Source: a virus. From it: a stretch of DNA of 64,000 nt. The notes under the pieces are model-generated. The model was not told the origin of the DNA, made no database searches, and saw only the letters and a list, made by a program, of their open reading frames with translations. Position numbers and translations under genes: made by a program. Of this stretch, positions 1,465 through 62,200 are shown in pieces (the stretch's first letter is position 1; each line of letters begins with the position of its first letter). The stretch lies in IMG/VR virus record IMGVR_UViG_3300005002_000001; one strand, written 5' to 3'.

Positions 1465-1519
1465 ACTCTATCCTTATCTACGTCGAAGATAAGTATATCC
1501 CGCTCTCTTTATGGGTCTA

Positions 1520-11122: not shown

Positions 11123-11127
11123 ATGAG

Positions 11128-41193: not shown

Positions 41194-42546
41194 GTGAATG
41201 AAAGTAGGAATATGATGGAAAAAACGTATGTTCTTGATACGAACGTCCTTGTCACCGACAGCAACGCAATCTATGCGTTTGAAAACAGCGAGATTGTGAT
41301 TCCGCTCGTCGTGCTCGAGGAATTGGATCGTCTCAAGAATCACCCCGACGACCGGGGTCGTGCCGCTCGCCAGGTCAACAGAATGTTGGATGATCTGCGA
41401 AAGGATGGAAATCTTAGCAAAGGAGTCAAGATCGAGAGGACGAAGAGCACACTCCGAGTCGTTTCAGTCGATCAAAAATCCATTAAGAAGCTTCCTCTAG
41501 AGCTGCAAGATACGTCTCGTTGTGACAATGTCATCATCGCCACCGCCCTGCAGGAATCGCAGAAGGCGACCCGGGGCAAACCTCGAGAAGTGAAGATGAT
41601 CAGCAAGGATATCAACGTTAGAGTCAAGTGCGACTCTCTGGGACTTCCTTCTGAAGATTATCTCAAAGCTCGACCTGTCAGCGATAGCTCGGCTTTTTAC
41701 ACCGGGTACGATACGATCGACGTCGAACCCGAAGTGATCGATGCGATCTGCACGGAAGGATGGGTGCAATATTCTCATGACTTCTTCCCCAATCACTACG
41801 TCAATCTTCGTACGCATAGCGATCCTAGCAAGTCAGTATTGGCTCGGGCCAAAGAGCCCGGCTTCTTGGTCAGGATCAAAGACGTAGATCAGGCTTTCGG
41901 TCTGAAACCCCGAAATCTGGAGCAGCGATTTTCTTTAGATCTGCTCTTTGACAACTCGGTCAAGCTTGTGACCCTTTGCGGCGCCGCCGGCACCGGCAAG
42001 ACGCTGTTGGCTGTTGCGGCAGGCATGCAGCACGTCCTCGAAGCTCCCGCCAAATATGATCGATTGATCATCACTCGACCGGTGCAGCCTGTCGGCCGAG
42101 ATATCGGATTCTTGCCCGGAACGCTCCAAGAAAAAATGGATCCGTGGATCGCTCCTATCAAAGACAATCTCGATCATCTGTGTCGAGCCAAGAAAACTCG
42201 AAAGGACGAGCCCTATCTCGACCTGCTTCTTCGCAACAAGAAGATCGAAATCGAAGCCATCACATACATCAGAGGTCGATCGATTCCGAACTCCTATATC
42301 ATCATCGACGAGGCGCAGAACCTGTCGATGCACGAACTCAAGACGATCATCACTCGAGCGGGAGATGGTAGCAAGATCGTGCTGACGGGAGATATCGAGC
42401 AGATCGACAACAACCACGTCGACATGTATACTAACGGTCTGACGAACGCCGTCGAAGCCTTCAAGGATTACAGGATCTCGGGTCACATCACACTGACAAA
42501 GGGGGAGCGTAGTGAGCTAGCGACGTTGGCGAGTAAGATCCTGTGA
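41194..42546 (+). CDS. phoH: PIN-domain PhoH-like ATPase (PhoH2/YlaK type)
   Basis: N-terminal PIN (YVLDTNVLVTD...VIPLVVLEELD). Walker A LCGAAGTGKTLLAV. Walker B IIIDEAQN. Confidence 0.85.
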   Translation: MNESRNMMEKTYVLDTNVLVTDSNAIYAFENSEIVIPLVVLEELDRLKNHPDDRGRAARQVNRMLDDLRKDGNLSKGVKIERTKSTLRVVSVDQKSIKKLPLELQDTSRCDNVIIATALQESQKATRGKPREVKMISKDINVRVKCDSLGLPSEDYLKARPVSDSSAFYTGYDTIDVEPEVIDAICTEGWVQYSHDFFPNHYVNLRTHSDPSKSVLARAKEPGFLVRIKDVDQAFGLKPRNLEQRFSLDLLFDNSVKLVTLCGAAGTGKTLLAVAAGMQHVLEAPAKYDRLIITRPVQPVGRDIGFLPGTLQEKMDPWIAPIKDNLDHLCRAKKTRKDEPYLDLLLRNKKIEIEAITYIRGRSIPNSYIIIDEAQNLSMHELKTIITRAGDGSKIVLTGDIEQIDNNHVDMYTNGLTNAVEAFKDYRISGHITLTKGERSELATLASKIL

Positions 42547-42584: not shown

Positions 42585-43895
42585 ATGGCTACTCTGATAC
42601 AGTCCATCAATCACTTTATGACCGGGTCCATCAAGGGCTCGGCCGAAGTGTTTGCTTCTATCTTTTACCTGTTGGACACGTACGGCCCGCAATGCGGCAT
42701 CCGTAGAGTGGCGTATAACACGGGAAGCTATCCGCAAGGCGCGGGTATGTACTACGGAAACACGGAAGCATCCTCAAGCAATAACGCTTGGGCCTGCTTC
42801 CACTGGGCTACGGCTGAGAATCCGTTCTTCATGCTGATCCAGTATGCGACATCCTCAGTCGATTCTTTTCCGTTTGGAAATGTCTTGCAAGGAGCCCAGG
42901 GCGTCCTCAAGGGAAATGATCCGTCCATTAGTCAGGGAGGAGTCGGCATCCAGTTTGCCGCCATTCCGTACAGCCTCACGCGTCTCGAGGATATTGATAT
43001 CTGGAACGGAAGCAGGTTTTCCAACGGAAAGGATCGGAAAAATTTTCCGTGTCCCTGGAACACGGCATCCAATGACGTAGTCATCTTCCCGCGGGCTAAT
43101 AACGAAGTCCCAGGCCGAGATTCGGGTCAGCTGAAACCGTCTTTGCCCGGGTTCTATCAGAGATGGGCCGCCGGCGGCATCAATGCTCCTAATCTCGGAG
43201 ACCAGGCGATCACTCGATCGATGTATTCGTGTCTTGTCTCTCAGAATGATCTTGCGTCTAGAAGTATGATGTGGCACATCATGGCTGATGGTGATGCTTT
43301 CATGTTTCTTAAGAATCACGGAACATCATCTTCGTCTTTTAGTTACTCGGGTCTGTATTTCGGACCGTATGAAGAAGCCGTCGGATTCAATTCGAAGATG
43401 CGCTACGTCATGATCAATCATCAGACGTCCGCTTTCAATGATCCGCCGTTTTCTCCTCTTTCTTCGGGTACGTACTACGGAGAAAGAACGGGAACGGGCA
43501 GCCTCGACGGCGGCGTCGCGTTTCCGACGTGCATTAGTGGATGTTTTGCGGCCGCTCTAGAAATTCCGACATTCATTAGCGATTCGAAATTCACTCCCGC
43601 TCGTCTCTTTTCTAGAAGCGCTGATGCCCCCATCTATGACGAATTTCCTTGGGGTCTAGCAGCTTACGATCCCGAAGGACAGGCTTTTGGATTCTGCGGT
43701 AGCATCAGATTCATGAGAGCCCTGTGGGGAGTTCCGACGCACACGGTGTTTCCGCAAAGTCTAAGAGCTGCATTCGGAAATTCTGTAACGGGCAGCGTCA
43801 AGATAACGGTTCCGTGGTTCACGGGATCCCAGTACTTGCCCGGGGCTAATCTACATGTGACGGGCACGCAGCTGATGTTTACGACTACTTATTGA
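42585..43895 (+). CDS. Paralog 1 of a 9-member tandem family (putative virion structural protein; family unrecognised)
   Basis: Shares the family signature blocks: N-terminal F..F.SG, G(I/V).R.AYNTG, NNAWACF.(W/F)A.A.NPF..LIQY, PW.G(S/T), FPRANN, Y(F)GPY, NDPPF, GGVAFP, and C-terminal (I/V)PW(F/D)(T/G)G. Confidence 0.5.
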   Translation: MATLIQSINHFMTGSIKGSAEVFASIFYLLDTYGPQCGIRRVAYNTGSYPQGAGMYYGNTEASSSNNAWACFHWATAENPFFMLIQYATSSVDSFPFGNVLQGAQGVLKGNDPSISQGGVGIQFAAIPYSLTRLEDIDIWNGSRFSNGKDRKNFPCPWNTASNDVVIFPRANNEVPGRDSGQLKPSLPGFYQRWAAGGINAPNLGDQAITRSMYSCLVSQNDLASRSMMWHIMADGDAFMFLKNHGTSSSSFSYSGLYFGPYEEAVGFNSKMRYVMINHQTSAFNDPPFSPLSSGTYYGERTGTGSLDGGVAFPTCISGCFAAALEIPTFISDSKFTPARLFSRSADAPIYDEFPWGLAAYDPEGQAFGFCGSIRFMRALWGVPTHTVFPQSLRAAFGNSVTGSVKITVPWFTGSQYLPGANLHVTGTQLMFTTTY

Positions 43896-43901
43896 GGCTC
43901 A

Positions 43902-45146
43902 ATGGCGACCATCGGATTCATCGAAAATAGGATCAGACCCACCCCCAGCCCGGGTACCGATTATTACATGACGATCTTTCAATTCCTCTCTAGCAGTTAT
44001 GCTATCGGAGAAGGAATCGAACTACTCGCGTACAATACGGGAACGTTGTCGACCCCCGGCATCGGCGGCATGAATTACTCTGATGAACCGAACAGGGTAG
44101 GCAACAATTCTATCGCTTTGTTCCGATTCAACATGGCGACCCCGCCCTTTTATGTGTTGATGCAATTTGCGTCCGGATCGGCGTTCGGAGCAGGTGAGCA
44201 AGCTTTTGCTCCTAATACGCTGACTACTCTGACAGCTTCGCTATATGGAAATTCATCTGGCAACGGCGGCACCGATAGAACGATCACTCCTAACTTCGCT
44301 CATTCTCAAGGAGCGACGGCCATTGCGGTTGCCTGTCGAGCCGATGGGGGAAATCCGTGGAATGGAACGTTAGCGTTCGGCAACGCAGTCAAAGGAAATC
44401 CCGTATGGATTTCCGGATCTTCTCAACTTTGCGTTTGGCCGCGCTCCAATGGACAAAGCGGATCTTTTGACGTGACGAGTTCAGCCTTCAATCCGTCCGT
44501 TCATTACAGACGACACAACATGTTTCCGCTTGTTTCGAACGGTAACATGGCTAACAAACACTCTACTGTCTCTGTCGTTGCCAATCGAGAAAACCTGTTG
44601 ATCGCGACCGATGTGGGAAATTCGGGATCATCGACATTTTGGTACTTCGGCAAGTACAACGCCCGACCGGGACTAGTCCCCGAAGTACCGTATGTGTGTC
44701 TCTGCACGACATCCAGCGTCAATGACCCTCCTTTCAAAGTCCGACCTCACAAATTCGGAACTTTGGATGGAACGCCTGAAGAAGGCGGCGTTGCCCACCC
44801 GACTGCGTCCTTCGGAGTTCGACAGTGTTCTTTGGATTACATGAGAACATTTGTCAATACGGTTAATCTGCATCCCAATACGATGTTCGGATTTCCTCAC
44901 AAATTCGACCAATTCGTCTACTTCTTGCTGTTGGATGAGGATCCTAATCAGTACGGTTACCTCGGCACCATTGATTTCTTCAGACTAGTTTATGGAACGG
45001 TGCCCAGAGGAGTTTCGAGAACTAGACAGTGGGCTATCTTCGGCAGTACGGTGCCATATAGCGCTAAGCTTTTGATTCCCTGGGACAATCTATCTCCTGC
45101 CGGTTCGGGAGGAAATAGAAGAGGAAGGATTTTCTCACGTGACTGA
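43902..45146 (+). CDS. Paralog 2 of the tandem family
   Basis: AIAVACRADGGNPWNGTLAFGNAVKGNPVW...VWPRSNG...FWYFGKYN...PYVCL...NDPPF...GGVAHPT...GYLGTIDFFR...IPWDN. Confidence 0.5.
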   Translation: MATIGFIENRIRPTPSPGTDYYMTIFQFLSSSYAIGEGIELLAYNTGTLSTPGIGGMNYSDEPNRVGNNSIALFRFNMATPPFYVLMQFASGSAFGAGEQAFAPNTLTTLTASLYGNSSGNGGTDRTITPNFAHSQGATAIAVACRADGGNPWNGTLAFGNAVKGNPVWISGSSQLCVWPRSNGQSGSFDVTSSAFNPSVHYRRHNMFPLVSNGNMANKHSTVSVVANRENLLIATDVGNSGSSTFWYFGKYNARPGLVPEVPYVCLCTTSSVNDPPFKVRPHKFGTLDGTPEEGGVAHPTASFGVRQCSLDYMRTFVNTVNLHPNTMFGFPHKFDQFVYFLLLDEDPNQYGYLGTIDFFRLVYGTVPRGVSRTRQWAIFGSTVPYSAKLLIPWDNLSPAGSGGNRRGRIFSRD

Positions 45147-45348
45147 ACCACTTTATGCAGGAGATTATTTCACAACTCTTTTGCCGGCATTCCCACCGGT
45201 CGTTTTCGGTGTTAAAGACTATAACCTCGATAGAGAACGATTTCAGAAGGTATATTCTTACATTCGAGCCAAGCAAATTTGGGTCTTCAGAGTGTCCGAT
45301 GATCCGCCCATTCCTGATGCATATCAGGGTCGATTGAGTCCATACTGA
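45139..45348 (+). CDS. Small hypothetical ORF between paralogs 2 and 3
   Basis: 69 aa with a GTG start and no internal Met. Its stop overlaps the paralog-3 ATG as TGATG, suggesting translational coupling. Confidence 0.25.
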   Translation: MTEPLYAGDYFTTLLPAFPPVVFGVKDYNLDRERFQKVYSYIRAKQIWVFRVSDDPPIPDAYQGRLSPY

Positions 45349-47066
45349 TGCCGACGTATACTGTTCAGCTAGACGGTCTGTTGTCGACGACAAACTCGAC
45401 AGAGGGACCGTTATGCGCTGCGATGTTTGCCACCGTCAAAGATTTTTTGCTCAATAATGCAGCGACTCTGGGAACTCAGCTAATAGCTGAGGGCGGTGGA
45501 TTTGCATATAGCGGTCAAAGACTACAAAATGGTTTGGGTCCGCCGGCCATTAACGATCCCCAAGCTAATTTCATTCCTGCTGATCCTGGCTGCGTCGCCG
45601 CGAACGCCTTTCGAAAAGGCTATAGCTTTTATGTTTGGGATGTCGTTCATGGAGGAACGTCCGGACAGTGGTGCTGCATTCGTTTTGCTTCAGCTTCAGT
45701 ACCCTTTGACGTATTTCTTCATAATTTTAGCGGCTCGCGGACTAGAGAAGGCCGGCCCACGGCTACATGGACAGCAGACACATCGGACTCTATTCCGAAT
45801 CAGCAGGGATATCGTACGAATACATTTCTGGCTTCCGCCGGCCCGCTAACCAACATCGACTGCCCTCCGCTTAGTCCATCTCCGGGAGGCAACGATTATT
45901 CTCTTCAAACAAGGACTGAAGAAGGAATTCCCTCGGCTTTCACCGAAGGTGATTACACTATTTTTGCTCGCACCGGATTCTATTATCTTGGTCTTTCTCG
46001 TACGACTGGCGGCGATCAGCGCATGCGCGGCGGCGGATTCGCAATTCAAATCGCCCAACGTGCCGATGGTGGAGAACCTTGGAGTTTGGGAACAGGAAAC
46101 CAAACTGGATATTTCATTCCTCCGGTGTATGATGGAATTACTAGCGCTAGCCTCTTAACTCCAAATTATTTGAATCATTGGACAGCTGGAGGAAGCACAC
46201 TTGGAGTCTTTCCAATTTCTAATGCGACATTGTCAAGTTATCCGACGACGGCTTCATTGGGGGGAAATCACGCGACGTCGTCTAACAATCTTTATCCGAT
46301 CATGACTGATCGTGGGACGGCTCAAGGATATTGGCAAACTCGATATCATTTGTTGGCTGACAGAGACAATTTGTTGATTGTAACGAGTGATGCATCCAAT
46401 ATTACGAACGTATACGATTACAAATTTTGTTACTTTGGAAAGTACATTACCCTTAAAGAAGAGCGATCAAATTATCCTTGGACGATGCAAGTACCATACG
46501 TTTTCTTGGCGACAAATACCGGTGCAGGTAATGAACCGACCATTCCCGTTGGACGATCGCTGATTGATTCGACATTCATAGAACCGGTTGTTTGGGGCTC
46601 GTGGCAAGGATTTAATATGTGGGAAGGGGGAGCGTGGTATCCGTCCGCGTCTCAAGGAGTAACATCAGTGATGTTAGATCTTCCCAATCGATCTAGAGAT
46701 CCGAGCCTCAATCCCAACAGACTTATCGGCAATGGTACTCCACAATATGATCGATATTCTATCGGTCTTTGGTTGACCGGGTCGGCCGGCCGATCCCATC
46801 CTGGTATCTCCTATTTAGGAAGAATGAATGATCTCATTCGAGCGATATCGGGTCTCGCATGTCACGATCAAACTGCAGACTTGAAGTTTGCTGTCGTGGG
46901 AAATTCGCAAACAACAGGAATGACTTCGAATTTTAACGTTGATTCTTCTGGTCCTTTTTCCTTTTTGAGACAGAAGATGGTCATTCCGTGGAACGGTTCG
47001 ACTCTGATCGGAGCAAATTCATCTCCTTCCGGTCTGACCGGTAGCATTACGACGGTGCTCACATGA
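45348..47066 (+). CDS. Paralog 3 of the tandem family (longest, 572 aa)
   Basis: ANAFRKGYSFYVWDVVHGG...IAQRADGGEPWSLGTGNQTG...YFGKY...PYVFL...IPWNGS. Carries extra insertions relative to the others. Confidence 0.5.
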   Translation: MPTYTVQLDGLLSTTNSTEGPLCAAMFATVKDFLLNNAATLGTQLIAEGGGFAYSGQRLQNGLGPPAINDPQANFIPADPGCVAANAFRKGYSFYVWDVVHGGTSGQWCCIRFASASVPFDVFLHNFSGSRTREGRPTATWTADTSDSIPNQQGYRTNTFLASAGPLTNIDCPPLSPSPGGNDYSLQTRTEEGIPSAFTEGDYTIFARTGFYYLGLSRTTGGDQRMRGGGFAIQIAQRADGGEPWSLGTGNQTGYFIPPVYDGITSASLLTPNYLNHWTAGGSTLGVFPISNATLSSYPTTASLGGNHATSSNNLYPIMTDRGTAQGYWQTRYHLLADRDNLLIVTSDASNITNVYDYKFCYFGKYITLKEERSNYPWTMQVPYVFLATNTGAGNEPTIPVGRSLIDSTFIEPVVWGSWQGFNMWEGGAWYPSASQGVTSVMLDLPNRSRDPSLNPNRLIGNGTPQYDRYSIGLWLTGSAGRSHPGISYLGRMNDLIRAISGLACHDQTADLKFAVVGNSQTTGMTSNFNVDSSGPFSFLRQKMVIPWNGSTLIGANSSPSGLTGSITTVLT

Positions 47067-48259
47067 CACTAATAGCTTCCATTGAACACAGATACACTTC
47101 TCGACGCGTCTACCAAGAAGCGTTCGTCAATCTTTACAATTTTTTGAGTGGAACATGCGCTCCTATCGGCGTGCAGTTGATCGCCAATAATAGTGGATCT
47201 AACGGCACAGGATTCGGATTCTGGGACAGCCCGCTGTCAGCCAGTCACAATGCTTGGGCGTGTTTCAAATTTGCATCAGCGACTAATCCTTTTTATACGC
47301 TGATTCAATATACGGAAAATGTTAACTTCGGTACCGCCCCGGGCAATCCGGGTCTGGCAGACGGTGCAGCTGGACAGTATCGAATGGCTGTCGCTGTGGC
47401 TTTCTGTTCGGGAGGGGCAAGTCCTTGGGGTGGGACATCAGCAAGTTTAGGAGCCGACATCAAGAGTACTCCGGTTTGGACGTCAGCATCAGCGCCACTA
47501 TTCGTCTTTCCGAGATCCAATAATCCAACGGGAAGCCATCTGACGAACAAAGAGAACACGATGACGTTTTTTAGATCGACCAATTACTCGCAAGTCGATC
47601 TCTTCAATATGACGACCGAAGGCGGAACGGGAGCCGTTACTCATTTCTTTGCTGATGAGAACAACTTTCTTTTTATGGCTGATCCTGGAGCTTTGGGAAA
47701 TTACAGCGTCATCTATTTCGGGAAATACTCCCCTCGATCTGATATCATTCCTGATTTTCCTTATGTTAGCATGGGTCTTTATACGGATTCTACCGACAGA
47801 GTTCCTATGACGTATACGGCAGATTACGGTTCAACCGCAGGAACCCTGTCAAATACAACATTTCCAGGAGGAATCGTGCATCCTTCGTCTTCTTTCGGAG
47901 TTCGAACGTGTAAGGTATTACTGAATTCGATGTTCATGCAATCGAGATATCATCCCAACAAGTCGATTACGACAGCATCCAATCGTTATGATCTCCATCG
48001 ACCTCAATTGGCAATTTTTGAAGATCCCAATCATTACGGCTATTTGGGTATGATCAATTTCTTTAGAATGGGATGGGGTATTCCGACAGCCGCCGTCTCC
48101 TCTTCCGGAGACTACGCCGCTTTCAATGTGCATTTAGCATTTACGATGAACCGTCCATGGAACACGTATCTCAAAATGATCGTTCCATGGACGGGATCCG
48201 TGCAGCCTTACTCTTTGACTAGCAGACTCGGAGTGCAATTTACGAGGTCGTTTGTTTAA
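47063..48259 (+). CDS. Paralog 4 of the tandem family
   Basis: HNAWACFKFASATNPFYTLIQY...AVAFCSGGASPWGGTS...TPVWT...VFPRSNN...IYFGKYS...PYVSM...GGIVHPSS...GYLGMINFFR...VPWTGS. Confidence 0.5.
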   Translation: MTLIASIEHRYTSRRVYQEAFVNLYNFLSGTCAPIGVQLIANNSGSNGTGFGFWDSPLSASHNAWACFKFASATNPFYTLIQYTENVNFGTAPGNPGLADGAAGQYRMAVAVAFCSGGASPWGGTSASLGADIKSTPVWTSASAPLFVFPRSNNPTGSHLTNKENTMTFFRSTNYSQVDLFNMTTEGGTGAVTHFFADENNFLFMADPGALGNYSVIYFGKYSPRSDIIPDFPYVSMGLYTDSTDRVPMTYTADYGSTAGTLSNTTFPGGIVHPSSSFGVRTCKVLLNSMFMQSRYHPNKSITTASNRYDLHRPQLAIFEDPNHYGYLGMINFFRMGWGIPTAAVSSSGDYAAFNVHLAFTMNRPWNTYLKMIVPWTGSVQPYSLTSRLGVQFTRSFV

Positions 48260-49743
48260 TGGCTCGGCGAGGTCTGATCAATTGTCACATCGATGGTAGG
48301 GGCCAGCATGCTCCGTATCAAACTCCCGTTTCTCCGATCGGATCTGAAATGTACGGTGCCCATGGTTCGTACATGTCTAATGAGATGTTCGTTACTCTCT
48401 TCAACTTTTTTAGTAGTGCGACCGCTCAGAGTTTAGGAATTCAAAGAAGGGCTTACTTCCAGGGAGGACAGTCTCAAAATCTTTGTTATCCGATGCTTGA
48501 ATTTATGACTGCTTCCCAGTGGGCGGGCACGGGCACGGGTTATTGGGATCAGGCGAATCCCATGGGAAATCATGCTTGGGCGGCTTTTGAATTCACTCTA
48601 GGATCTCCTTCATTTTGGATTTTTATGCAATGGGGAGCCACGACCGGAGCCGCTGGAGGAGCTTCAGGTGAGCAAGGATATTTCACGTCACAAGCTTTCG
48701 GATTGAGCGGATCGGGTGGACAAGCAAGCGGTTCTCTTGGAAACCCTTATGCATCTGACGCTAGCAATATTGGAGGTCACACCGCGTTAACAGTAGCCGG
48801 TCACACTCGACTCGCGGGTTGCGGAATTTCTGTCGCTTTCATGAATGACGGATCATCTCCGTGGAATGGTACGATCAACAACAATGGGGCAGACACAAAG
48901 GGAGCGCCGCTTTGGAAAGCTTCTGCCATGGCATTTCCGAGAGCCAACAACGATCGTGGAATGTTTGCTTCATCAAAAGATTTACTGTTCGGATTGATGT
49001 ACGAAGGAAACAGCTGTTTCGTTACGACGAGAGTCAGTTCCCCGGGAAGTGGTCAACCTCAACTATCCATGACTGGTCTGGGCATGTCAAAGTACGTGCC
49101 CATCTATGACAATTCCGATGTTCTTTATCATACTATCATCGAAGAAGATAAGTTATGTATTTTGATCGATCATTCAGGCATAGGTTGCTACAGCATGTTC
49201 TATTATGGTCCGTACGTTCCCTATTCATCAGGTAGTATCGCTCCGAGAATAGCTCTTCATAAGTATCTTAATAACAATGATGCTGCGGGCGTGCTCTCAC
49301 TCGGAAATAACCAAGTGTATGGTGGATTTGATATGGGTCTCATCAATGCTTCGAATCAGTTTTCCGATCAAACCATGGGAGATTATGCTTATCATCAAGG
49401 TGGTGTGACGCATCCTGTGTCTGCTTCTGTCGTCGGTTGCAGTTTGGACACTTTTCCCAACTCTTATTTTGACAGTCCGCGTCGATTTCAGACGGATATC
49501 AGAGGACCGTGGTTGACCAGTTTCCCCCTAGTTTATATGAACGAATTTCCTGAACGCCGGGCCCTATTGGGAGAGATCAGATGGTTTTCGATCATTGCAA
49601 ATATCAGATCTGGAGCTCTACTCAATACCGGATCACTTTTGGCCGTAGGTAATACCGAGCTTGGAACTTTCAAAGCAGTTGTTCCTTGGTTCACAGGATC
49701 GATTCCGGGTATTTATGGATCGAGGCTCGGTCAATCCCGATGA
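48259..49743 (+). CDS. Paralog 5 of the tandem family
   Basis: NHAWAAFEFTLGSPSFWIFMQWG...DGSSPWNGTINNNGADTKGAPLWK...FPRANND...FYYGPY...GGVTHP...VPWFTGS. Confidence 0.5.
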   Translation: MARRGLINCHIDGRGQHAPYQTPVSPIGSEMYGAHGSYMSNEMFVTLFNFFSSATAQSLGIQRRAYFQGGQSQNLCYPMLEFMTASQWAGTGTGYWDQANPMGNHAWAAFEFTLGSPSFWIFMQWGATTGAAGGASGEQGYFTSQAFGLSGSGGQASGSLGNPYASDASNIGGHTALTVAGHTRLAGCGISVAFMNDGSSPWNGTINNNGADTKGAPLWKASAMAFPRANNDRGMFASSKDLLFGLMYEGNSCFVTTRVSSPGSGQPQLSMTGLGMSKYVPIYDNSDVLYHTIIEEDKLCILIDHSGIGCYSMFYYGPYVPYSSGSIAPRIALHKYLNNNDAAGVLSLGNNQVYGGFDMGLINASNQFSDQTMGDYAYHQGGVTHPVSASVVGCSLDTFPNSYFDSPRRFQTDIRGPWLTSFPLVYMNEFPERRALLGEIRWFSIIANIRSGALLNTGSLLAVGNTELGTFKAVVPWFTGSIPGIYGSRLGQSR

Positions 49744-49749
49744 TGCTTA

Positions 49750-51168
49750 ATGCCCAAAGGTGTTTTAAATTGCTCAGCAGAAGGTAGGATGTTTCATCGG
49801 TTCACCCCTAATTTCACGGGTGAACATACCTTCAACGTCAGCGCAATTGACGTTTTCACTAACGTAATTTCTGCTTTCGATTCTTCGATGGCCGTTAACT
49901 ATGGTATTTTTCGAAGGGCGAGCAATTTTGGCCTGACGGGAAATGCGACGAATAATATTTCGAGATTCACCGAAGCTAGCATCCTAACCAATCCAGGAAA
50001 CGGCCTGACAAGGTGGGATGCTGGCGCGCCCCCTGGAAACAACGCTTGGGCTGTTTACGAATTCACGCAAGCTTCGGTTCCCTTTTGGGTATTAATACAG
50101 TACGCTAAAGAATCTATCGATTTTAGCTATCAACGATTGGGAGAACCGCCCGGCGCCCCGGGTTCGACACAAAGCATCATGTCAAATACGACTCCGACGA
50201 CTCAAAATAGAAACAACGGAGTCAATATTGCTATAGCTTTTATGCTTGATGGAACTTCTCCATGGACCGGGTCAACTAACAACGATGGATCAGACACCAA
50301 AAGCAATCCTGTTTGGAAAACGGACGCTATCAAATTTCCTCGTGGAAATGACGAAGGCGGCTGGGAATTTTTGACTTCGGATCGAATGATTCCTATCATT
50401 CACGAAACATCTATCATTTACAATCCCGGTTATTCGACGACACAGCATAATCCGAATCCCTCCGCTGTAGCTTATGACGCGTTCAACATGCTATATCACA
50501 TCATCTTCGATCAGAATAATATTCTGATTTTTTTTGATGTCAATGGCCAAGGAAATGCCGGTAGTCTGTTCTATTACGGGAAATTCAAGCCTTATCACTC
50601 TAACAATCCGGCTCCGTATGTCTGTTTGTATCGAAACAATTGTTATGATGACACTAGCGAATCTCTAACTGTGGCTGAAGATAGGCAGAAGCAATATACG
50701 CCATATGGTAGTGTCAATTCCAATTCGACCTTTACGGTCACTAGCAACACGACCAACAATTTCATGCAGCCCTATTTAAATTCAGGGCCTAGGCAAGCCA
50801 TCAATGGAGGTGTATATCATCACGCTCGTCGACACAGCGTGGGGTGTCTGATAGGAGTCGCTCCTCATCTGAACTATGATTTGAGACAAATTCCTAACAT
50901 GCAAATGAAACAGGATAATTCAGGTCAATTTAGACATATGACTTCATACCCGGACGTCTTAGGATTCGAATATCCCAGTCGATATGGCTATATGGGTCGT
51001 CTCAGCTTCTTCAAAGTTGCGAAGAATGTTAGACACGGTCATTTCTTTTCTGATTCTGAAATGATCATTGGCAATCCAGCTGTCGGTTCTAACAAGATGA
51101 TCATCCCGTGGGACGCTAACACCGAATACGGTCTTTTTGGAAATAGATTCGGAGCGGCTTGGTTATGA
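49750..51168 (+). CDS. Paralog 6 of the tandem family
   Basis: NNAWAVYEFTQASVPFWVLIQYAKE...DGTSPWTGSTNNDGSDTKSNPVWK...FPRGNDEGG...FYYGKF...PYVCL...GGVYHH...IPWDAN. Confidence 0.5.
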   Translation: MPKGVLNCSAEGRMFHRFTPNFTGEHTFNVSAIDVFTNVISAFDSSMAVNYGIFRRASNFGLTGNATNNISRFTEASILTNPGNGLTRWDAGAPPGNNAWAVYEFTQASVPFWVLIQYAKESIDFSYQRLGEPPGAPGSTQSIMSNTTPTTQNRNNGVNIAIAFMLDGTSPWTGSTNNDGSDTKSNPVWKTDAIKFPRGNDEGGWEFLTSDRMIPIIHETSIIYNPGYSTTQHNPNPSAVAYDAFNMLYHIIFDQNNILIFFDVNGQGNAGSLFYYGKFKPYHSNNPAPYVCLYRNNCYDDTSESLTVAEDRQKQYTPYGSVNSNSTFTVTSNTTNNFMQPYLNSGPRQAINGGVYHHARRHSVGCLIGVAPHLNYDLRQIPNMQMKQDNSGQFRHMTSYPDVLGFEYPSRYGYMGRLSFFKVAKNVRHGHFFSDSEMIIGNPAVGSNKMIIPWDANTEYGLFGNRFGAAWL

Positions 51169-52574
51169 CATTTCGGGGGCTTTTGAACTGTGATGTTGAT
51201 TATCGATCCCCTTGGTTTGAAAACGGGTTATCACTTGGCGCGATGGGAACCATCGATCAACAGATCTTTGTGACACTCTTCAAGTTTATGTCAGGTTCCG
51301 TCGGTCAAAGTTTGGGAATTCGATTACGAGCTCATAATTTTGGAAGAAACAACGATCTAAATTTCAATTATGGATGGAGATCTGGCGGCAGCTCTTCTAT
51401 GAATTATTGGGACGAAAATTCACCTGCTGGTAATAACGCATTCGGAGTCTTTGAGTTTACGCAAGCATCTCCTCCTCTCTGGGTCTGTTTGCAGTATCAT
51501 GGCTATAGCTTCAACTCTTCGCTGAGCCCTAACAGTTCACCAACAACTCCGACATATCCCCAGTCTTCTGTGGGACCAAACGGAAATGAATCGGGCGTCT
51601 TTATCTCATGCGCCTTTAGACAGGACGGCGCTCGTCCGTGGAATGGAACTATTGCTAATACGGGATCAGACACCAAAGCCAATCCTGTTTGGAACAGCGG
51701 ATCAGCTATTTTTCCTCGAGCTTCGGCATTTGGAGGTGATAGAGAATCAGCCGCGGATGCCGTCATGAGATTGACTCCTCGCGCCGGGAGCGTCCGCGGG
51801 CAGGTGGGAGGATCAGATTCGACATTTGTTGATAACCCGACAGCGTCGTTCGATAAAAATTCAGGTGTATACCATTTCATAGTTTCAGAAGATTCGCTAC
51901 TTTTTGTGATGGATCCCAAAGGCATTGGCAATTATAGCTGCGTCTTCTATATGGGTAAGTACGATCAGATTCGAACGGCTCTGTCTGAAAGCCTCAACTG
52001 GTGTAACTACGTCTGCCTGCAACTGATGAACACTGACAGTTCACCCAATCGTCCCATTCTTCCGCGCTATGGAGAATCTACGATTGGTTCTATCATTCCG
52101 TTCGGTCCTCGTAGCATTAATCAAACTGCCTATCCTACATCCGGATCATCTGCCAATCCCGATCATGGGCTTAATGAAACGTGGATAGGCGGCGGAGCAA
52201 ACAACGTCTATACTAATCGAGTAGAAGCCACTATCATCGATAGAAATCAACTTATCGAAGATACAAATTTGTTGACGCCAATCTATCTTAGACATCCCAA
52301 TCGTGCCGCATCTAATCCGACAGGTCGAACCCCGGGACGTTTTGATATGTTCACGATTCCTATCGCATGTTTCGGAGATCATTTTGGCTATGGCAAGTTG
52401 GGAGAGATCAGTACTTTTTACATGGTCTTTGGTTTACCCTCGAATGCGACGATCAACAATAAACAGTGGGCAGTCGTGGGTGATGCTCAAGTGAATTCGA
52501 TTAAGCTAGCAATTCCCTGGGACGGTATTTCTGATCCCGGAACGGCCGGCGGTCGAGGAGGAATTTCTTTCTAA
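51159..52574 (+). CDS. Paralog 7 of the tandem family
   Basis: NNAFGVFEFTQASPPLWVCLQYHG...DGARPWNGTIANTGSDTKANPVWN...FPRASAFGG...FYMGKY...IPWDGIS. Confidence 0.5.
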   Translation: MVMTFRGLLNCDVDYRSPWFENGLSLGAMGTIDQQIFVTLFKFMSGSVGQSLGIRLRAHNFGRNNDLNFNYGWRSGGSSSMNYWDENSPAGNNAFGVFEFTQASPPLWVCLQYHGYSFNSSLSPNSSPTTPTYPQSSVGPNGNESGVFISCAFRQDGARPWNGTIANTGSDTKANPVWNSGSAIFPRASAFGGDRESAADAVMRLTPRAGSVRGQVGGSDSTFVDNPTASFDKNSGVYHFIVSEDSLLFVMDPKGIGNYSCVFYMGKYDQIRTALSESLNWCNYVCLQLMNTDSSPNRPILPRYGESTIGSIIPFGPRSINQTAYPTSGSSANPDHGLNETWIGGGANNVYTNRVEATIIDRNQLIEDTNLLTPIYLRHPNRAASNPTGRTPGRFDMFTIPIACFGDHFGYGKLGEISTFYMVFGLPSNATINNKQWAVVGDAQVNSIKLAIPWDGISDPGTAGGRGGISF

Positions 52575-53953
52575 TGCCGATGGCAGGACTAGTCAATCAA
52601 GGGTGGAAGTACGCACCCTTCCCTGATCCGGTGTATCCCTCGCCTGCAGCGAGAGTCATCGTATACGATCACACGTTTGTAAACTTCTTTAGATTCTTGT
52701 CGGGCACGTGCGCTCCCATGGGTGTTCGACTTCGAGCTTATCACACAGGCTCGGGATCTCCCAATGGCGGCATGAACGCTATGGATTCGGGCTATAAACC
52801 TCATGGCGATCACGCTTGGTACACTTTTGAATTTACGCAAGCCAATCCTCCCTTTTGGCTGCACGCATGGATCGGTGTGTTTGGTGGATTCGACGGGGGC
52901 GGCGCCGCCGCCCCCGCATTGACAGACGGAGGCGATAGCGGAAATAATCGTCATTGGTCGATTGCCGTTGCATGTCGGTCAGACGGAGGTTGCCCGTGGA
53001 ACGGTTCGACATCTAGCAGCGGCATCGACACTAAAGGATCGACGGTTTGGTCTGCTACCGCCGGAGGAGGATCTGGAACATTATATGTTTGGCCACGGTC
53101 CAACAATCCCGGAGGATCCCACAATACCAACAAACAAAATACTGCTGGAGCTTTTTCTGATAATACTGAGTCGCTTTTTGTTTATGACAGCGGCTTTGAG
53201 CCGACGTCTTTCGCTCATTTTTTCGCAGGCCCCGATTGGTATCTCATGTTTAACGAAGCGGGAGGTAATGGCATTTGTTACTGGGATCACTTCGGCAATT
53301 ACATTCCTATTCCCGCTATTAGCGGAACGTGTCCTCACTACTTTATGGCTAACTTTAAGGGTCGTATGTCCAATGGTCATGGCACATACGATCAGTTTAT
53401 GCATGAATTAGCAGGTTTTCAAGGATTTGGCTCTTTGAATGGAGGTTCGTTTGATGCTTCTACCTTCGGAAGTTTTGCTGGATCAGATTTCGCTGTCGAT
53501 GGATTAAGTACGGGAGGAATTGCTGTCCCATCTTCTGCATCGACTAGTCCTGTGAGAGTCATGCATTGGTCTATGCCCTCTATTTTTCCTTATGTTATTC
53601 ATGGCATGTCAGCTGGAAATCTAGCAGCTAATTCGGGATCAGCTTGGATCGATGAATGGACTCCGTATTTGTATGTCGGAGAATTTCCATATGGAACGGG
53701 TTCAGCGGGCTACGTTGGAGTAGCCCGCGATTTAAAGATCGTAGGTGGTGGAGTGCAGCACATGTCACTTAATGCCCAGCGAACTAAAGCCGCTATTCAT
53801 TGCTTTCCGTACCTTTTTGGGGACGTTCTCAATGGTTTTACAAGCTACAATGATATTAGTCCGACTCATTTGTCTATTGTGACACCCTGGACTTCTTCTA
53901 TCTATCCTTATCATAACGTGACGTCAGACGGCACTTCCTTTTACATTCCCTGA
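52574..53953 (+). CDS. Paralog 8 of the tandem family
   Basis: DHAWYTFEFTQANPPFWLHAWIG...DGGCPWNGSTSSSGIDTKGSTVWS...VWPRSNNPGG...TPWTSS. Confidence 0.5.
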   Translation: MPMAGLVNQGWKYAPFPDPVYPSPAARVIVYDHTFVNFFRFLSGTCAPMGVRLRAYHTGSGSPNGGMNAMDSGYKPHGDHAWYTFEFTQANPPFWLHAWIGVFGGFDGGGAAAPALTDGGDSGNNRHWSIAVACRSDGGCPWNGSTSSSGIDTKGSTVWSATAGGGSGTLYVWPRSNNPGGSHNTNKQNTAGAFSDNTESLFVYDSGFEPTSFAHFFAGPDWYLMFNEAGGNGICYWDHFGNYIPIPAISGTCPHYFMANFKGRMSNGHGTYDQFMHELAGFQGFGSLNGGSFDASTFGSFAGSDFAVDGLSTGGIAVPSSASTSPVRVMHWSMPSIFPYVIHGMSAGNLAANSGSAWIDEWTPYLYVGEFPYGTGSAGYVGVARDLKIVGGGVQHMSLNAQRTKAAIHCFPYLFGDVLNGFTSYNDISPTHLSIVTPWTSSIYPYHNVTSDGTSFYIP

Positions 53954-53959
53954 GAATCC

Positions 53960-55204
53960 ATGGCACTACACGGTACAGTAAATCATACGATATGGAGGCC
54001 TGTAAACAATCAAGAGGTCGAATTTCGTCACGCGTTCAACGACATGTTCGTCGCGACCTATCGCTTTTTGAATTCGTCTACCGCTCAATCGATGGGTATC
54101 TTTCGACGAGCTTGCAACTTCAACAATCAATTTTCAGATTGTGATTTCAAATATCGTCAGTCTTCTCCCCCGCCAGGGAACAATGCTTGGGCGCTTTTTG
54201 AATTTTCATCCGCAAATTTACCCTTTTGGTTGCTTATTCAACAAAGTGATGCTTTAAGCAATAATTCATTTGGTATCGGTGCAGGAGAACCGGCCGACAA
54301 TGATTGGTCAGGAAAGATCAGCGGGTTTGCTTTTTCTGTCGCTTTAAGAGAAGATGGAGGAAGTCCATGGGCTGGTTCAACTCTCAACGACGGTAACGAT
54401 TCTAAAGCTCGTCCGGTCTGGACGCCGGGACCGTCTAGACTAGCGATGTTTCCGATTAGCAATGGTTCCAAAGGACAATGGAGAGTTGCTCGATCAGGCA
54501 TGCACCCGATCTCTTTATGGATCGATGCTAACAACACTCGAACTAGATGCACGCTTTATCATTTTTTGGCCAGCGAAGATGGCATCACATTTTTGATGGG
54601 ACATGATGGTGGTACAAATTACGACATTACATTTTTCGGAAAATACAATCCGCTAAATGCTTCCACATTTTCGACTTCGTACGTTTTCTTCGGAACTCTG
54701 ACGGACAATTTGGGATTTTTCAACACGGGATATTCTGATGAGATTTGGCCATGGCACGGCGGCGGCGGTGCCTATGGATCTCGTCATTTTGGATCAAATT
54801 TGGTTGGCATGACATACGCCGGAGGAAACTCACTTTCAGGACAGGACTACTACTGGACGGGAGGAATTCTGGATAAGAATACTTTCACTTCCGTTCCGAT
54901 GGCGATCTCTCTGCCGATGCAGATTCATTACTATCGTTATTACGCCAGAAGGCTCGTTCTGAATCCAGCCCTCAAAAAAATCGATGTTTTTAACTTCCCT
55001 ATTGCATCTGATGGGTTAGGCCGAGGAATCGTAGGCGAACTCAATAATTTGAAGTACGTTCACACATTGCCCAATCACGCCACTATTCATGGTAGAAAAT
55101 TTGCTGTATTTGGTAGAACTGCTGCCCAGGGAAAAATCATGTCGCAATGGGCGCCCGGAATTCCTCCCGGAAGGTATACGAATGTATTTGGAGAGCAATT
55201 TTAA
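53960..55204 (+). CDS. Paralog 9 of the tandem family
   Basis: NNAWALFEFSSANLPFWLLIQQSD...DGGSPWAGSTLNDGNDSKARPVWT...FPISNGS...TFFGKYN...SYVFF. Confidence 0.5.
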   Translation: MALHGTVNHTIWRPVNNQEVEFRHAFNDMFVATYRFLNSSTAQSMGIFRRACNFNNQFSDCDFKYRQSSPPPGNNAWALFEFSSANLPFWLLIQQSDALSNNSFGIGAGEPADNDWSGKISGFAFSVALREDGGSPWAGSTLNDGNDSKARPVWTPGPSRLAMFPISNGSKGQWRVARSGMHPISLWIDANNTRTRCTLYHFLASEDGITFLMGHDGGTNYDITFFGKYNPLNASTFSTSYVFFGTLTDNLGFFNTGYSDEIWPWHGGGGAYGSRHFGSNLVGMTYAGGNSLSGQDYYWTGGILDKNTFTSVPMAISLPMQIHYYRYYARRLVLNPALKKIDVFNFPIASDGLGRGIVGELNNLKYVHTLPNHATIHGRKFAVFGRTAAQGKIMSQWAPGIPPGRYTNVFGEQF

Positions 55205-55758
55205 TGGCTCTCGTTCTGATGGTGACTCAATCGCTTAGTGATGGCTACAGAATCTCTCCGGAGACATTGTCAGCCCATATGAGCTCATCAGATTACATAT
55301 CAGCTTCGGTCGGTTACGTTTTCTCGACGACGGATTATCCAGAGACGATTTGTTATATCGTTTCGTCATCATTTGCTACTGAGATCTATGGAGAAGTTTT
55401 CGAAGCCCGCCCTCCCGAATACAACGCGGTGACGCCGCTCATTCCGTCCGAAATGTTAGTTGCCGCCGTCGGACAATTCGTTCCTAGGCGAAATTACTAT
55501 ATGTCAAGCTCTTTTGCTGATGATACGACGCAGGATGTTTCGACGTTCATTGCTCGATCTTCTGACTATACAGGTCTGACAGCTAGCATTTCTACGCTTG
55601 ATACGATTGAACTCGGCACGACATCGAATGTCGAACCTGATGAGCCGCCGTTCCCTGACCCACCTCCCGTCGGTCCCTACGATATGAATCGATTCCGAAA
55701 GACGTATACCCACGTACGTGTAAGGCCTAGAATCAGGAAATACAGTTCGTCTCCGTGA
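55204..55758 (+). CDS. Hypothetical Ser/Thr-rich protein with a Pro-rich C-terminal segment
   Basis: The track ORF starts at 55147. The ATG at 55204 overlaps the paralog-9 stop as TAATG. S/T-rich with PDEPPFPDPPPVGPY. Confidence 0.35.
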   Translation: MALVLMVTQSLSDGYRISPETLSAHMSSSDYISASVGYVFSTTDYPETICYIVSSSFATEIYGEVFEARPPEYNAVTPLIPSEMLVAAVGQFVPRRNYYMSSSFADDTTQDVSTFIARSSDYTGLTASISTLDTIELGTTSNVEPDEPPFPDPPPVGPYDMNRFRKTYTHVRVRPRIRKYSSSP

Positions 55759-55782: not shown

Positions 55783-56763
55783 ATGGGACTGCTTGATTCC
55801 AAGACACGCATTCTAGATACGCAAGTGACCCTTGAGGGACGGCGGCAGATCTCTACAGGTCGATTCAAGATCGAATGGATCTCTTTGACAGACGGTTCGA
55901 CCTTTTACGAGGCTGATGCTGTTTCGGGATCGTCCGACGCTACCAAACGATTGTACCTGGAAACATGCCATCTTCCGCAAGATCAGATCACTTTTGAAGC
56001 CGACGATTCGGGCAAGCTGATGCCGTTTCGAAATGACAGAAACATTATCGTCAAGAGCGGCAAGATCTTCTCCGGTAGCATCAATATCACGGGCTCGTTT
56101 GCCAACGATTACGAGCTGATCGAAAATGAGCAGTTTGCCAGTCTGGCTTCATCTTTGCTTTCTTCATCTTTGGACAATTTCAAGAAGTGTCGGATGATCG
56201 GCACTATCGATCCGATCTTCGAAGATGATCTTTTCTTGGCAGGTCCTTCAGATATTAGTTTCGTCATCACTGATGAGCAACCTATCGACGATGTGCGGGC
56301 CCAATCGGCCAATATCAATCACCTAGAATCCTTTTTCCAGGATCGAAGGATGATGCATCTTGACAACTTCATGTACCTTCCTCCTGTCATGAAGACCGAG
56401 GATGCTGTGGACCTGACCAATCCAGACCAAGCTAGAATATTCAGAATCGGAGAATATGCAGCACTTGGCCCGGTCGATAAGTCAGATTATTCTGAGTTCG
56501 AAGAGGAACTGCTGACTGCCGAACGAACCGGGTTCTGTAAGACAGTGAGGTTCGATCCTACTAGTCGAAACAACCGAATCGGAGCTCAGTTTTTCGAAAT
56601 TCGAAAGAATGACATTCTAAAGCTTGAAGCCATCGATTTCGGGTCGTATCGAACGGACGATCCGGATCGTCCGATCAAGAAAGTATTCTTTCTAGGCAAA
56701 GTCATGGTCGACGACAACGGCAACTACACGTTCATCCATCTCTTTACGCTGGTGTTCGACTGA
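55783..56763 (+). CDS. Hypothetical protein (probably virion-associated)
   Basis: 326 aa. Its stop overlaps the next start. No motif recognised. Confidence 0.4.
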   Translation: MGLLDSKTRILDTQVTLEGRRQISTGRFKIEWISLTDGSTFYEADAVSGSSDATKRLYLETCHLPQDQITFEADDSGKLMPFRNDRNIIVKSGKIFSGSINITGSFANDYELIENEQFASLASSLLSSSLDNFKKCRMIGTIDPIFEDDLFLAGPSDISFVITDEQPIDDVRAQSANINHLESFFQDRRMMHLDNFMYLPPVMKTEDAVDLTNPDQARIFRIGEYAALGPVDKSDYSEFEEELLTAERTGFCKTVRFDPTSRNNRIGAQFFEIRKNDILKLEAIDFGSYRTDDPDRPIKKVFFLGKVMVDDNGNYTFIHLFTLVFD

Positions 56764-59249: not shown

Positions 59250-62200
59250 TGGCTCTTCTGAATACGCTGTCATTCAAATCTACCTCGGTGGCTCCTAAGC
59301 TATCGATACAGCCGACGCTCAAAACTCTTGTAACGTCAGTCGGGGTCGCTCCTGCATTGTCAGCGGGCTCGACAGTGACTTTCAAACCTATTTCAACGAC
59401 TCCCGTTTCTTCGTTGTTGACCGCCAAACCCAACATTCTAACGGCCTCGCCGCTGTCATCGATTGCTACTGCTCGTTTTCCTATCGCCGAACTGGTCAGA
59501 CCCATCAGGTTGCTGACGATCAAACCTCTAGCTCCGCTCATCACGGTGGCTGCCATCAAGTCCAGAGCCGATCGAGATTCGGATCAAAAGGCTTTCTCAC
59601 AAAAATTTCAAGCTCTTGACAAGAAGTTTTCTCCTTACGAAAACCTGACCGGTCTTTCGAGCCAGCGTCCCGAACTGATGATGCTGACGGAATTCAAGCC
59701 CATCTTTAACGAGAACTTCGATAAGCAAAGCGTCAGTACTTTCACGGGCAAAGATTTTGTGTCCGGGCTCAACGACTACGGAGACTTTATCGACATCCAG
59801 CTGCAGGTCAAAAACCTGTATCACTACAACATCGCTAAGATGATCAAAGAACTGAAGGATAAGGATCCTGACGTCAAGAAAGATCTCGAAGATAGAGAAG
59901 TCGCGTTCCTTGAAGCGATGGAGACGACCATTCGAAATGTCAACCATCTTTACGATCTGTCTCGAGCTCTAGAGACGAATAAGGACACTTTTAATCTCAA
60001 ATCAGATACTTTCACTATTTCTTGGGAGACGATCGTTCGAACCTATTTCTACGACTATTACTCGTGGTTCATTCCCTATTTGGGAGTTTCTAGAAACTAC
60101 ACGTATGTGACCCCCTCGAAATTTCTAACGAAGTTTGGTTATCAACCGCAAGGCATCGCTAGCTTTGCGAGCACCAAGATCTACTTGCAGCTGCTGGCAG
60201 AATTCCGAAATCTCATTTCGAATTACTCGGCTAAATTGTTGAACCAATCGATCGATCGTCAGAAGTCTGACTTCAAGGCTGTCAGCATCAACACGAATGC
60301 TAACAACACTTGGTACGATGTTAGTCGTAATGCTACAGATATCGAAAGCCCTGTCTATAATGACATCGCTCGTCTTAATGGGCGTTCTGTCGGCGCCGCC
60401 GTCCCTCGCCTGGCTAGCTTTTTCGAGCAGATCGATAAATCTTTCGCCCCTGCTTTTTCTAGGCCCGAAGACAAGATCTCATTCTATTCTCACTTCCTGT
60501 CGAGAGAATTCAGATATTCGTCGGCGCTATCAAACGCGGACACACAGACATTCCTCGCTCAGACTTATGGGTATACCGTCAATACGCAGGGATCGAATTT
60601 CAATGTCTTTGATTTCATGATCGGTAGGATCGGAACCAAGATCACAGATGCGTTCGCTAATTCGGCTGGAGGATCAAATTCTATCGTTTCTCCAGCGCAG
60701 ATCCAAAATGGCGATACGTTGGTTCTTCCATTCGAAAACAAGTACCTCGAGCTTGACGGATCGATTTTCACACCCGGATCCGAGTATCTGATCGATTCGA
60801 TTTTCGAAAATGCGCAGACGGCGTCTCCCGATGGTTCACCGCTAGATGTCAGCAGGCTGGAAAACTACGCCAACACTACAAATCAAGTCGCCAACAAATT
60901 CAGCGAATTCGTCGACCGCATGAGGTTTTTCTACCAGGTTCCCTCTGATGGTTATTCGTACTACTACCGACTGTCATACAACAACAGATCGACGATGGAA
61001 TCTCCGCAAAGATTTGCTGAAACCATCTATGATGGTTTGCTGTCGGGACGTCAAGTTCCGAAATACGAGATCGCTAATGATCCGATGTCGGCACTGCTGA
61101 ATCTAGCATACAAAGACAAGACCCTCAAGGCTTTGCTCTACATGTATGTCATCATTTCCAATTCCGGAAATCCGTCAGTTTCCAATGTCGGTCAGGCCGA
61201 AATTCGTCGCCAGATCAATTTTTCGTTGGGTACGTCGTTGTTTATCAACAACGACCAGTCAGCTCTAGATCGGATCATCCAGGAAATCCAGTCTAGACTA
61301 GCGACTCTCGTTACGACTCGATTCAATTACCTCTACAACGATATCTTCAATGTCTTTGGCTTCTATACGACGCAATTCAAACCGTACTACTACACGTCGG
61401 CCATGCAAACGTATCGAGATGTCAAGTTCGGATCCAGCTTTAATGAGATCACGGCCGAAAACATCGCTAATAGCTTGAGAAAAGGCTCACCTGCCCTGAA
61501 CTTTTTGAAGAATACCATCGCGTCCATTCAAAATGCGTTCAAGAGCAATCAAGCTTTCGTCGATACTAGAACTCGTTATTCTGACATCAACGATTCGCTT
61601 GTAGTAGCTCTTGCGATGGAGTTGTGCCTGACTGTTTTTGACAACCACATCAATACGAGGTTTCTCAATCGTTTCATTACTCGAGGCGCGAGCTCGATCG
61701 GACGTGAGTATTACACTATCTCCAATAAACAGTCCAATACGGGCGCTAGCGTTAGCCTGGCTCAAACCAAAATAGCTGATGAAGTCGATTTGACGATTCA
61801 GTGCATCACTGGCATCACAGCGATGCTTCGTAGAGTAGTTGATTCTTCCTTGGTCATTGTCAATCGAGTTCGAAATGCGGAGACAGTTCGCGTATTGAAT
61901 GAAGTTATCGCGACGCTTGGGGACAGAAAATATCTCGGAAACTTGATGAACGAACAGCAGCTTGTGCTAGCAAAAGCTAGTACTGACGAGGTCCGGCTCA
62001 AACTGTTTTCGAAAGCACGAACCGCCGATGTGGCCATCGGTGCAGCCAAAGCTCGTCAGGCGTCCGATGATCTGTCTATTCTAGATGATACGACCATTTC
62101 TGGTAATCTTAGAAATGCTTTTTATGCTTTCTTCGCGCAGGACAAATTTGCTAGCAAGAAGTCATTCAATAGCAGAATTTTGACGGTCGGCGTGCCAAAC

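Follow-up and report, generated by a model that had tools for sequence, protein, structure and literature searches.

Nine tandem paralogs of an uncultured large phage share a predicted fold with the JBD30 tail-fibre proteins and occupy an accessory gene slot

Why would a phage keep nine diverged versions of one gene side by side? The question is raised by IMG/VR virus record IMGVR_UViG_3300005002_000001, a 64,000-nucleotide (nt) stretch of DNA, hereafter the window, in which nine consecutive open reading frames (ORFs; par1 to par9) encode an array of related proteins. An earlier reading of this DNA, made from the letters alone, regarded them as structural proteins of an unrecognised family, serving either as components of one composite virion structure, such as paralogous fibres, or as a diversified receptor-binding repertoire. 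Here we report that the paralogs share a predicted three-dimensional fold with gp47 and gp48, the fibre proteins of phage JBD30, and that the array is kept in order across deep divergence. The nine genes probably encode subunits of a virion appendage. The phage has a large genome and probably a contractile tail, and the best candidate is a hetero-oligomeric side fibre or arm borne by its baseplate.

The building block itself is already known from JBD30 (2024), and so is the principle of assembling a fibre from globular paralogs. What is new is the expansion to seven and nine genes, a family that has had no annotation, a plug-in slot with alternative cassettes, and a shared sequence motif. The arms of JBD30 consist of two globular paralogs rather than trimeric rods, and stable sets of seven and nine genes suggest that this design extends much further.

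The paralogs and their predicted fold

The nine ORFs lie on one strand with the lengths and coordinates originally described (398-572 amino acids, aa; Table 1). All-against-all BLASTP gave significant matches for 35 of the 36 pairs (E 1e-56 to 1e-3) at 22-32% identity over most of their length, lower than the 25-45% first estimated by eye. The par3/par5 and par3/par6 pairs are weak, and these three proteins are joined to one another through other members. No further member was found among the ORFs of the whole window by BLASTP. Most of the signature blocks said to run through all nine proteins were reproduced in the alignment, but one of them, NDPPF, is confined to par1 and par2; the near-invariant columns are Gly, Trp, Pro, Ala, Asp and Lys. 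The composition also agrees with the first description, being poor in Lys (1.2-2.7%) and Glu (1.5-3.0%) and rich in Gly (9-14%) and Ser (8-11%).

The genes are tightly packed, with less overlap than had been proposed: four junctions overlap, whereas three are 6-nt gaps and one is a 201-nt gap, rather than overlaps of 1-10 nt throughout (in order: +6, +201, -4, -1, +6, -4, -1 and +6 nt, the sixth becoming -10 if par7 starts at its upstream TTG). The ATG start of par7 forms an ATGA overlap with the stop codon of par6, and the chosen start of par6 retains an N-terminal G(L/V)(L/I)NC block common to par5 and par7.

At the level of sequence, the family is as unfamiliar as it first appeared. Searches of the nine proteins against Pfam, PHROGs and NCBIfam returned no usable family and nothing at the Pfam curated threshold, the sole sub-threshold Pfam match being that of par8 to DUF4623 (E 0.087). 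Neither single proteins nor profiles matched any PDB sequence. Among 50,697 GenBank phages, no match was obtained by megablast of the array or by tblastn of par4 and three single-copy relatives. A profile search of 1.84 billion cluster representatives, the kind of survey that the sequence-only reading had recommended, recovered 531 relatives at E <= 1e-3 and 400 at E <= 1e-30; the best 150 of the 531 are mostly 360-410 aa long, and the library carries no annotation. The present analysis thus offers a likely role for some 530 metagenomic clusters that have none assigned.

The predicted fold is where a relationship emerges. We modelled par4 with AlphaFold2 (AF2) as a single chain, without templates, from a 37-sequence alignment. 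The model is mostly beta, as had been guessed from composition, with a predicted local distance difference test score (pLDDT) of 84 and a predicted template modelling score (pTM) of 0.88. A Foldseek search of the PDB with this model matched chains K and G of entry 8rk3 only (E 1.7e-6 and 3.5e-6). This entry is the baseplate of JBD30, in which gp47 and gp48 are 'tail fibre forming proteins' with similar folds (PMC11445458). The two proteins pair as heterodimers, and three heterodimers make up each of three bent lateral arms; these arms bind the type IV pilus and are anchored on the distal tail protein and the upper baseplate protein (PMC11445458). What the sequence-only reading took for an unrecognised family is therefore novel in sequence, whereas its fold is that of the JBD30 fibre proteins, solved in 2024. 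The par4 search returned no classical trimeric fibre or tailspike (fibrous, beta-helical, or with a known fibre domain), and no double jelly-roll or HK97 major capsid fold.

A second Foldseek search, against BFVD, extended this picture. The par4 model matched 'virion structural proteins' of the siphophages FoX4, KL1 and AchV4 (E 7e-9 to 3e-4, probability 1.0), and also proteins of Atu_ph07 and phage G, both jumbo myophages. Weaker matches were to three consecutive accessions, A7KUT2-4, of 293, 270 and 267 aa; their E-values (1.5e-3 to 2.9e-2) miss the Foldseek line of 1e-3, at probabilities of 0.98-0.99. These are probably gp158, gp159 and gp160 of Bacillus phage 0305phi8-36. ORFs 158-160 lie in the baseplate/fibre region of this 218-kb myophage, each is annotated as detected in the virion by mass spectrometry, and the three products are tandem paralogs of one another (24-26% identity). 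We considered and rejected the idea that the trio are the curly-fibre proteins of 0305phi8-36, for which the published candidates are gp119, gp129 and gp131, whereas the lengths fit gp158-160.

Several differences separate the window from these precedents. JBD30 and the window both encode adjacent, diverged paralogs, two in the former and nine in the latter, and the subunits encoded here are 80-250 residues longer, with extra loops. The JBD30 genes sit between those for the tape measure and the distal tail protein of a 37-kb Pseudomonas siphophage (Valentova et al. 2024), whereas the array sits between a PIN-PhoH fusion gene and the late block of a large phage that carries a contractile-type baseplate gene. 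Phage Lydia has a two-protein fibre, gp67/gp68, whose components have similar folds and were modelled on JBD30 (PMC11946847). The proteins of Lydia, Xanthomonas phage FoX4, Burkholderia phage KL1 and Achromobacter phage AchV4 are predicted to have the same fold as par4, but they are encoded by gene pairs in the tail modules of small siphophages, unlike the nine-gene array, and show no sequence similarity to the window family (tblastn against the GenBank phages was empty). In 0305phi8-36 the genes are tandem paralogs too, but there are three, they are shorter (267-293 aa), and the fold match is weaker. The long tail fibre of T4 (gp34-gp37) is likewise made from several products of side-by-side genes, some of them mutually related. 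Those of T4 form elongated trimers of fibrous fold, whereas those of the window are predicted to be globular and single-domain, and the par4 model gave no fold match to the T4 fibre.

Ordered conservation and an exchangeable slot

Nine family members are present in the window and in each of four related loci. Two of these (L001 and L006) are near-identical to the window genome, a third (L002) is a diverged relative in which synonymous change is saturated, and the fourth (L012) is much more distant. All nine L002 orthologs are intact, with 69-91% identity and nonsynonymous divergence (dN) of 0.06-0.25. Where synonymous divergence (dS) could be measured (four genes), dN/dS was 0.03-0.06, similar to the values for PhoH and ClpP, and the nine genes are thus under purifying selection where this is measurable. 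Conservation is uneven: par1 is 83% identical to its ortholog (dN/dS 0.06), par2 85%, par3 69% and par4 91%, and the par3, par6 and par8 orthologs as a group are 69-74% identical. The L012 genes are collinear with par1-par9 at 32-64% identity, and the matching paralog is the best BLAST match for eight of nine; the third gene, whose best match is par4, was assigned to par3 by position only, and this positional equivalent has about 405 aa as against 572 aa here. A distance tree places each paralog in an ortholog group of its own.

Elsewhere the family occurs in smaller numbers. Four members stand in tandem in L013, and seven form the array of IMGVR_UViG_3300005683_000047, which runs PhoH, four members, a 116-aa ORF with the motif described below, three members, a 95-aa ORF and a 326-type gene. 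Single members are found in other loci, and par4 is the best match of every one of them. The most informative is a myophage contig (L011) in which the single member is embedded in tail and baseplate genes, in the order sheath, tube, chaperone, tape measure, Dit-like, Pam3_gp18-like, spike-like (PF18352), family member, sheath initiator and wedge genes. The lone member of L003 and that of L010 adjoin Laminin_G_3 proteins; comparison of the family profiles with a 390-aa neighbour in L003 by hhalign gave no signal. The window itself contains a gp25-type baseplate wedge/sheath-initiator gene, and the phage therefore probably has a contractile-type baseplate. In the same region (1-1993, minus strand) the next ORF after the gp25-type gene, at least 489 aa long, is cut off by the start of the window; by eye its N-terminus resembles a gp6/gpJ-type baseplate protein, and Pfam gives no match for it.

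The array is flanked upstream by the PIN-PhoH fusion gene and downstream by a gene for a 326-aa protein, a conserved core component of a large clade of uncultured jumbo phages. The 326-aa protein has 485 homologues on contigs of up to about 357-369 kb (those listed are about 45-50% identical over the full length) and 196 relatives in IMG/VR. Pfam, PHROGs, NCBIfam, PDB and the GenBank phages contain no match to it, and none was found in a set of one genome per bacterial species, hence it gives no clue to the host. Its N-terminal third is invariant and predicted to be disordered. A tblastn search with the 326- and 828-aa proteins likewise found no match among the GenBank phages. The order of the 326-, 828- and 1325-aa genes is kept in L009 (the same contig as L002), L012 and L014; in L009 the downstream block encodes proteins of 326, 828, 1325, 654, 238, 410, 146 and 794 aa. 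When metagenomes were scanned with the 1325-aa protein, every contig recovered broke off shortly after the gene for it.

In 34 of the 44 IMG/VR loci with PhoH upstream of a 326-aa homologue, the two genes are less than 100 nt apart and no array lies between them. Because most members of the clade have PhoH directly beside the 326-aa gene, and the motif accompanies only loci with an insert, the nine-gene cassette is a lineage-specific, accessory insert in this slot. The slot also receives other genes. Arrays of six genes from two other families fill it in about ten loci, mostly in the alternating order A-B-A-B-A-B; one of these occupies L014 996-9461 (ENA ERZ27274791 k133_3844997, 357 kb), and others are found at L038, L040, L050, L054 and L055. 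A locus with four paralogs of yet another family (L094) adds a further cassette. In L014, L038, L050, L054, L055 and others, the six-gene arrays share with the window the PIN-PhoH/326-aa slot, subunits of 430-560 aa and the organization as tandem diverged paralogs, yet their families have no detectable homology to the window family, profile against profile. The possibility that the six-gene A/B arrays and the four-gene array of L094 are diverged members of the window family was rejected for lack of any profile-profile signal. The A-B-A-B-A-B alternation recalls the three gp47-gp48 heterodimers of each JBD30 arm. The slot thus marks a cassette-exchange site in a large uncultured jumbo-phage clade that has no match among GenBank phages.

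Two small ORFs with a common motif punctuate the array. A 69-aa ORF fills the sole long gap, after par2, and a 184-aa ORF that carries a second copy of the motif at its C-terminus follows par9; the latter starts at the end of par9 and has 184 aa, as in the relatives, and not 203 aa. We searched for the motif as [RK][FY]xKxY[ST][HYF]x[RK], and in all six frames of the window it occurs only twice, in the 69-aa ORF and at 55690. Its broader shape is approximately (T/N)R(F/Y)(R/Q/K)K(T/V/A)Y(S/T)(Y/H/F)xR, often after a proline-rich stretch. In L002 and L012 the motif is found at the two equivalent places, and the second site is also seen in L009. Carriers include the window, L002, L012, L014, L028, L030, L054 and L099. 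Within an array the motif is present exactly twice, in window-type and unrelated six-gene arrays alike, as RF(R/Q)K(T/V)Y in the window and RF(R/Q)K(T/A)Y in the six-gene arrays. The L014 sites are the C-terminus of the second gene and a small ORF that closes the array, and a small motif ORF also closes the unrelated six-gene arrays of L028, L030 and L054; where both sites were seen (these four loci), the arrays are punctuated at the same two places as the window. Across 80 IMG/VR loci scanned, the motif was confined to those with an insert in the slot, and it may be a docking or assembly signal.

Table 1. Positions of the nine paralogs, the motif ORFs and the flanking and baseplate genes in the window
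Feature	Coordinates	Strand	Product and basis
Array of nine paralogs	42585-55204	+	ORF list, all-against-all BLASTP
par1	42585..43895	+	436 aa
par2	43902..45146	+	414 aa
par3	45348..47066	+	572 aa; most divergent member, large insertions
par4	47063..48259	+	398 aa; shortest and most conserved; member modelled
par5	48259..49743	+	494 aa
par6	49750..51168	+	472 aa
par7	51165..52574	+	469 aa from ATG; 471 aa from TTG at 51159
par8	52574..53953	+	459 aa
par9	53960..55204	+	414 aa
69-aa ORF	45139..45348	+	Motif DRERFQKVYSYIRAKQ; fills the 201-nt gap; called as a gene in L001 and L002
184-aa ORF	55204..55758	+	Second motif copy NRFRKTYTHVRVRP, C-terminal
PIN-PhoH fusion gene	41194..42546	+	Upstream anchor of the slot; Pfam PhoH 9e-51, PIN_4 6e-27
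326-aa protein	55783..56763	+	Conserved core gene of the clade; homologue searches
828-aa and 1325-aa proteins	56763..63226	+	Start/stop overlap with preceding genes; conserved downstream block
gp25-type baseplate wedge/sheath-initiator gene	1520..1993	-	Pfam GPW_gp25 27.6 bits (cut-off 27.2); phrog_43 and phrog_261, 'baseplate wedge subunit'

A probable baseplate fibre and its alternatives

That these are structural proteins, as the sequence-only reading held, is supported by the JBD30 fold, by the relative in the L011 baseplate module, and by the probable distant fold relatives in 0305phi8-36, which mass spectrometry verified as virion proteins. Of the two roles then left open, a multi-component structure of paralogous fibre proteins fits better and a receptor-binding repertoire less well, because even deeply diverged relatives retain every one of the nine genes, one-to-one and collinear, with purifying selection where it was measurable. 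From this ordered retention, the JBD30 precedent and the context of the single-copy relative, we infer that the nine proteins assemble hetero-oligomerically, attach to the baseplate and serve in host adsorption. Each subunit would be a globular, beta-rich protein with the gp47/gp48 fold. The JBD30-type building block would here have been copied and diverged into nine separate genes, all expressed from a single compact unit in which start and stop codons overlap. The subunits would take distinct, fixed positions in a bead-like fibre, stacked on the JBD30 principle, and the 69-aa and 184-aa motif proteins are candidate adaptors or assembly factors that would dock the fibre to a conserved part of the virion.

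A more detailed version can be put forward as a tentative proposal, in our view possible but well short of probable. The appendage might be one asymmetric fibre in which each bead comes from a different gene and stands in a fixed order, with length and shape possibly fixed as well; the motif proteins would dock it, its Ser/Thr/Asn-rich surface might be glycosylated by the phage's own 29-kb glycan-biosynthesis locus (see below), and the slot would be a plug-in site for fibre cassettes of nine, seven or six genes. The nine subunits and the two motif proteins are concrete targets for multimer modelling and metaproteomics.

A number of observations weigh against a baseplate fibre of nine subunits. 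Some 40 kb separate the gp25-type gene, on the opposite strand, from the array, which lies between PIN-PhoH and unmatched genes, outside any recognisable tail module. The 828- and 1325-aa proteins downstream have no match in Pfam, PHROGs, NCBIfam or PDB, and the AF2 model of the 326-aa protein is poor (pLDDT 57) despite a 53-sequence alignment. Copy number varies by lineage (1, 4, 7 or 9); since single-copy relatives exist, one copy can suffice, and the fold does not need nine positions. Comparison of 37- and 150-sequence family profiles with JBD30 gp47 and gp48 by hhalign gave probabilities below 1%, in a test of low power with a single sequence on the JBD30 side; because there is no sequence-level signal to gp47/gp48, the argument for homology is one from fold alone. 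Finally, A7KUT2-4 were equated with gp158-160 because three exact lengths match in order, and not by looking up their names.

Some of these observations would suit the repertoire of alternative receptor-binding proteins, in which each paralog would build its own appendage, homomeric or paired, and so broaden or switch host range. The gp47/gp48 arms of JBD30 themselves bind the receptor, a pilus; conservation is uneven, with par3, par6 and par8 more diverged from their orthologs than par4; loops have expanded in particular lineages, as in par3; copy number is seven in one lineage and nine in another, alongside the single-copy relatives; and the slot is a hot spot of cassette replacement. We nevertheless consider such a repertoire unlikely. 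Down to 32% identity the nine genes are retained one-to-one and in order, with no loss, pseudogene or extra copy in four relatives, dN/dS is low where it can be measured, the start/stop-overlapped genes suggest matched expression, and the sole solved precedent is heteromeric.

Location elsewhere on the virion, for example as capsid decoration, head fibres or neck whiskers, with the JBD30 fold as nothing more than a shared building block, would accommodate the distance between the array and the gp25-type gene; the unmatched downstream block could include head genes, and a ClpP-type protease gene lies just upstream. Against it, the only solved relatives are baseplate arms, and the single-copy relative of L011 is embedded in a baseplate gene order; we judge this placement quite improbable. 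Least credible of all, to the point of being very hard to sustain, is a non-structural role as enzymes (hydrolases, for instance) or host-takeover factors. Such a role was raised by the authors of the JBD30 study, who assigned gp47 to the nitrilase superfamily (PMC11445458), and it could also draw on the nearby 29-kb glycan-biosynthesis locus. However, Pfam gives no match for JBD30 gp47 or gp48 at E <= 0.01, nor for the nine paralogs at its curated threshold; no enzyme family was matched, the near-invariant columns read as structural and not as a catalytic set, and mass spectrometry places the probable distant fold relatives in virions. A hetero-oligomeric baseplate fibre remains the reading that we favour.

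Other features of the window

The 20 nt preceding each start codon of the array show no obvious Shine-Dalgarno site (42565-63226, inspected by eye only), which may point to a host group in which such sites are seldom used. A scan for promoters and terminators did no better than on shuffled sequence.

A block of about 29 kb for sugar-nucleotide and glycan biosynthesis (6461-35744, minus strand) stands out by its size for a phage. Among the enzymes it encodes are at least six group-1 (GT4-like) glycosyltransferases, a GT2 enzyme and two NAD-dependent epimerase/dehydratases, together with UDP-glucose dehydrogenase, UDP-galactopyranose mutase, a GFO/IDH/MocA oxidoreductase and a methyltransferase. 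Possible targets of these enzymes are virion proteins, among them the Ser/Thr/Asn-rich paralogs, or the surface of the host. Also on the minus strand are two NAD salvage genes, one for nicotinamide phosphoribosyltransferase (11733-13178) and one for a cytidylyltransferase-like/Nudix fusion (13229-14254) that is probably an NMN adenylyltransferase-Nudix protein.

At 11047-11201 on the minus strand lie two neighbouring tRNA genes with the anticodon CUA, which would read TAG. Recoding of TAG through these genes was considered and rejected: TAG is the rarest stop among 62 long ORFs (TGA 41, TAA 12, TAG 7) but does end seven of them, and the array reads through in code 11. It seems that the genome follows the standard code even though it encodes amber-suppressor tRNAs. 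Near the gp25-type gene lie genes for a late sigma factor (5383-6162) and for a homing endonuclease that has GIY-YIG-type PHROG matches (2986-3576). The ClpP-type protease gene (39545-40150) is followed by a Lys/Ala-rich ORF of 72 aa (40245-40463); in L001 and L002 the corresponding ORF is annotated as a chlamydial Hc1 histone-like protein (PF07432).

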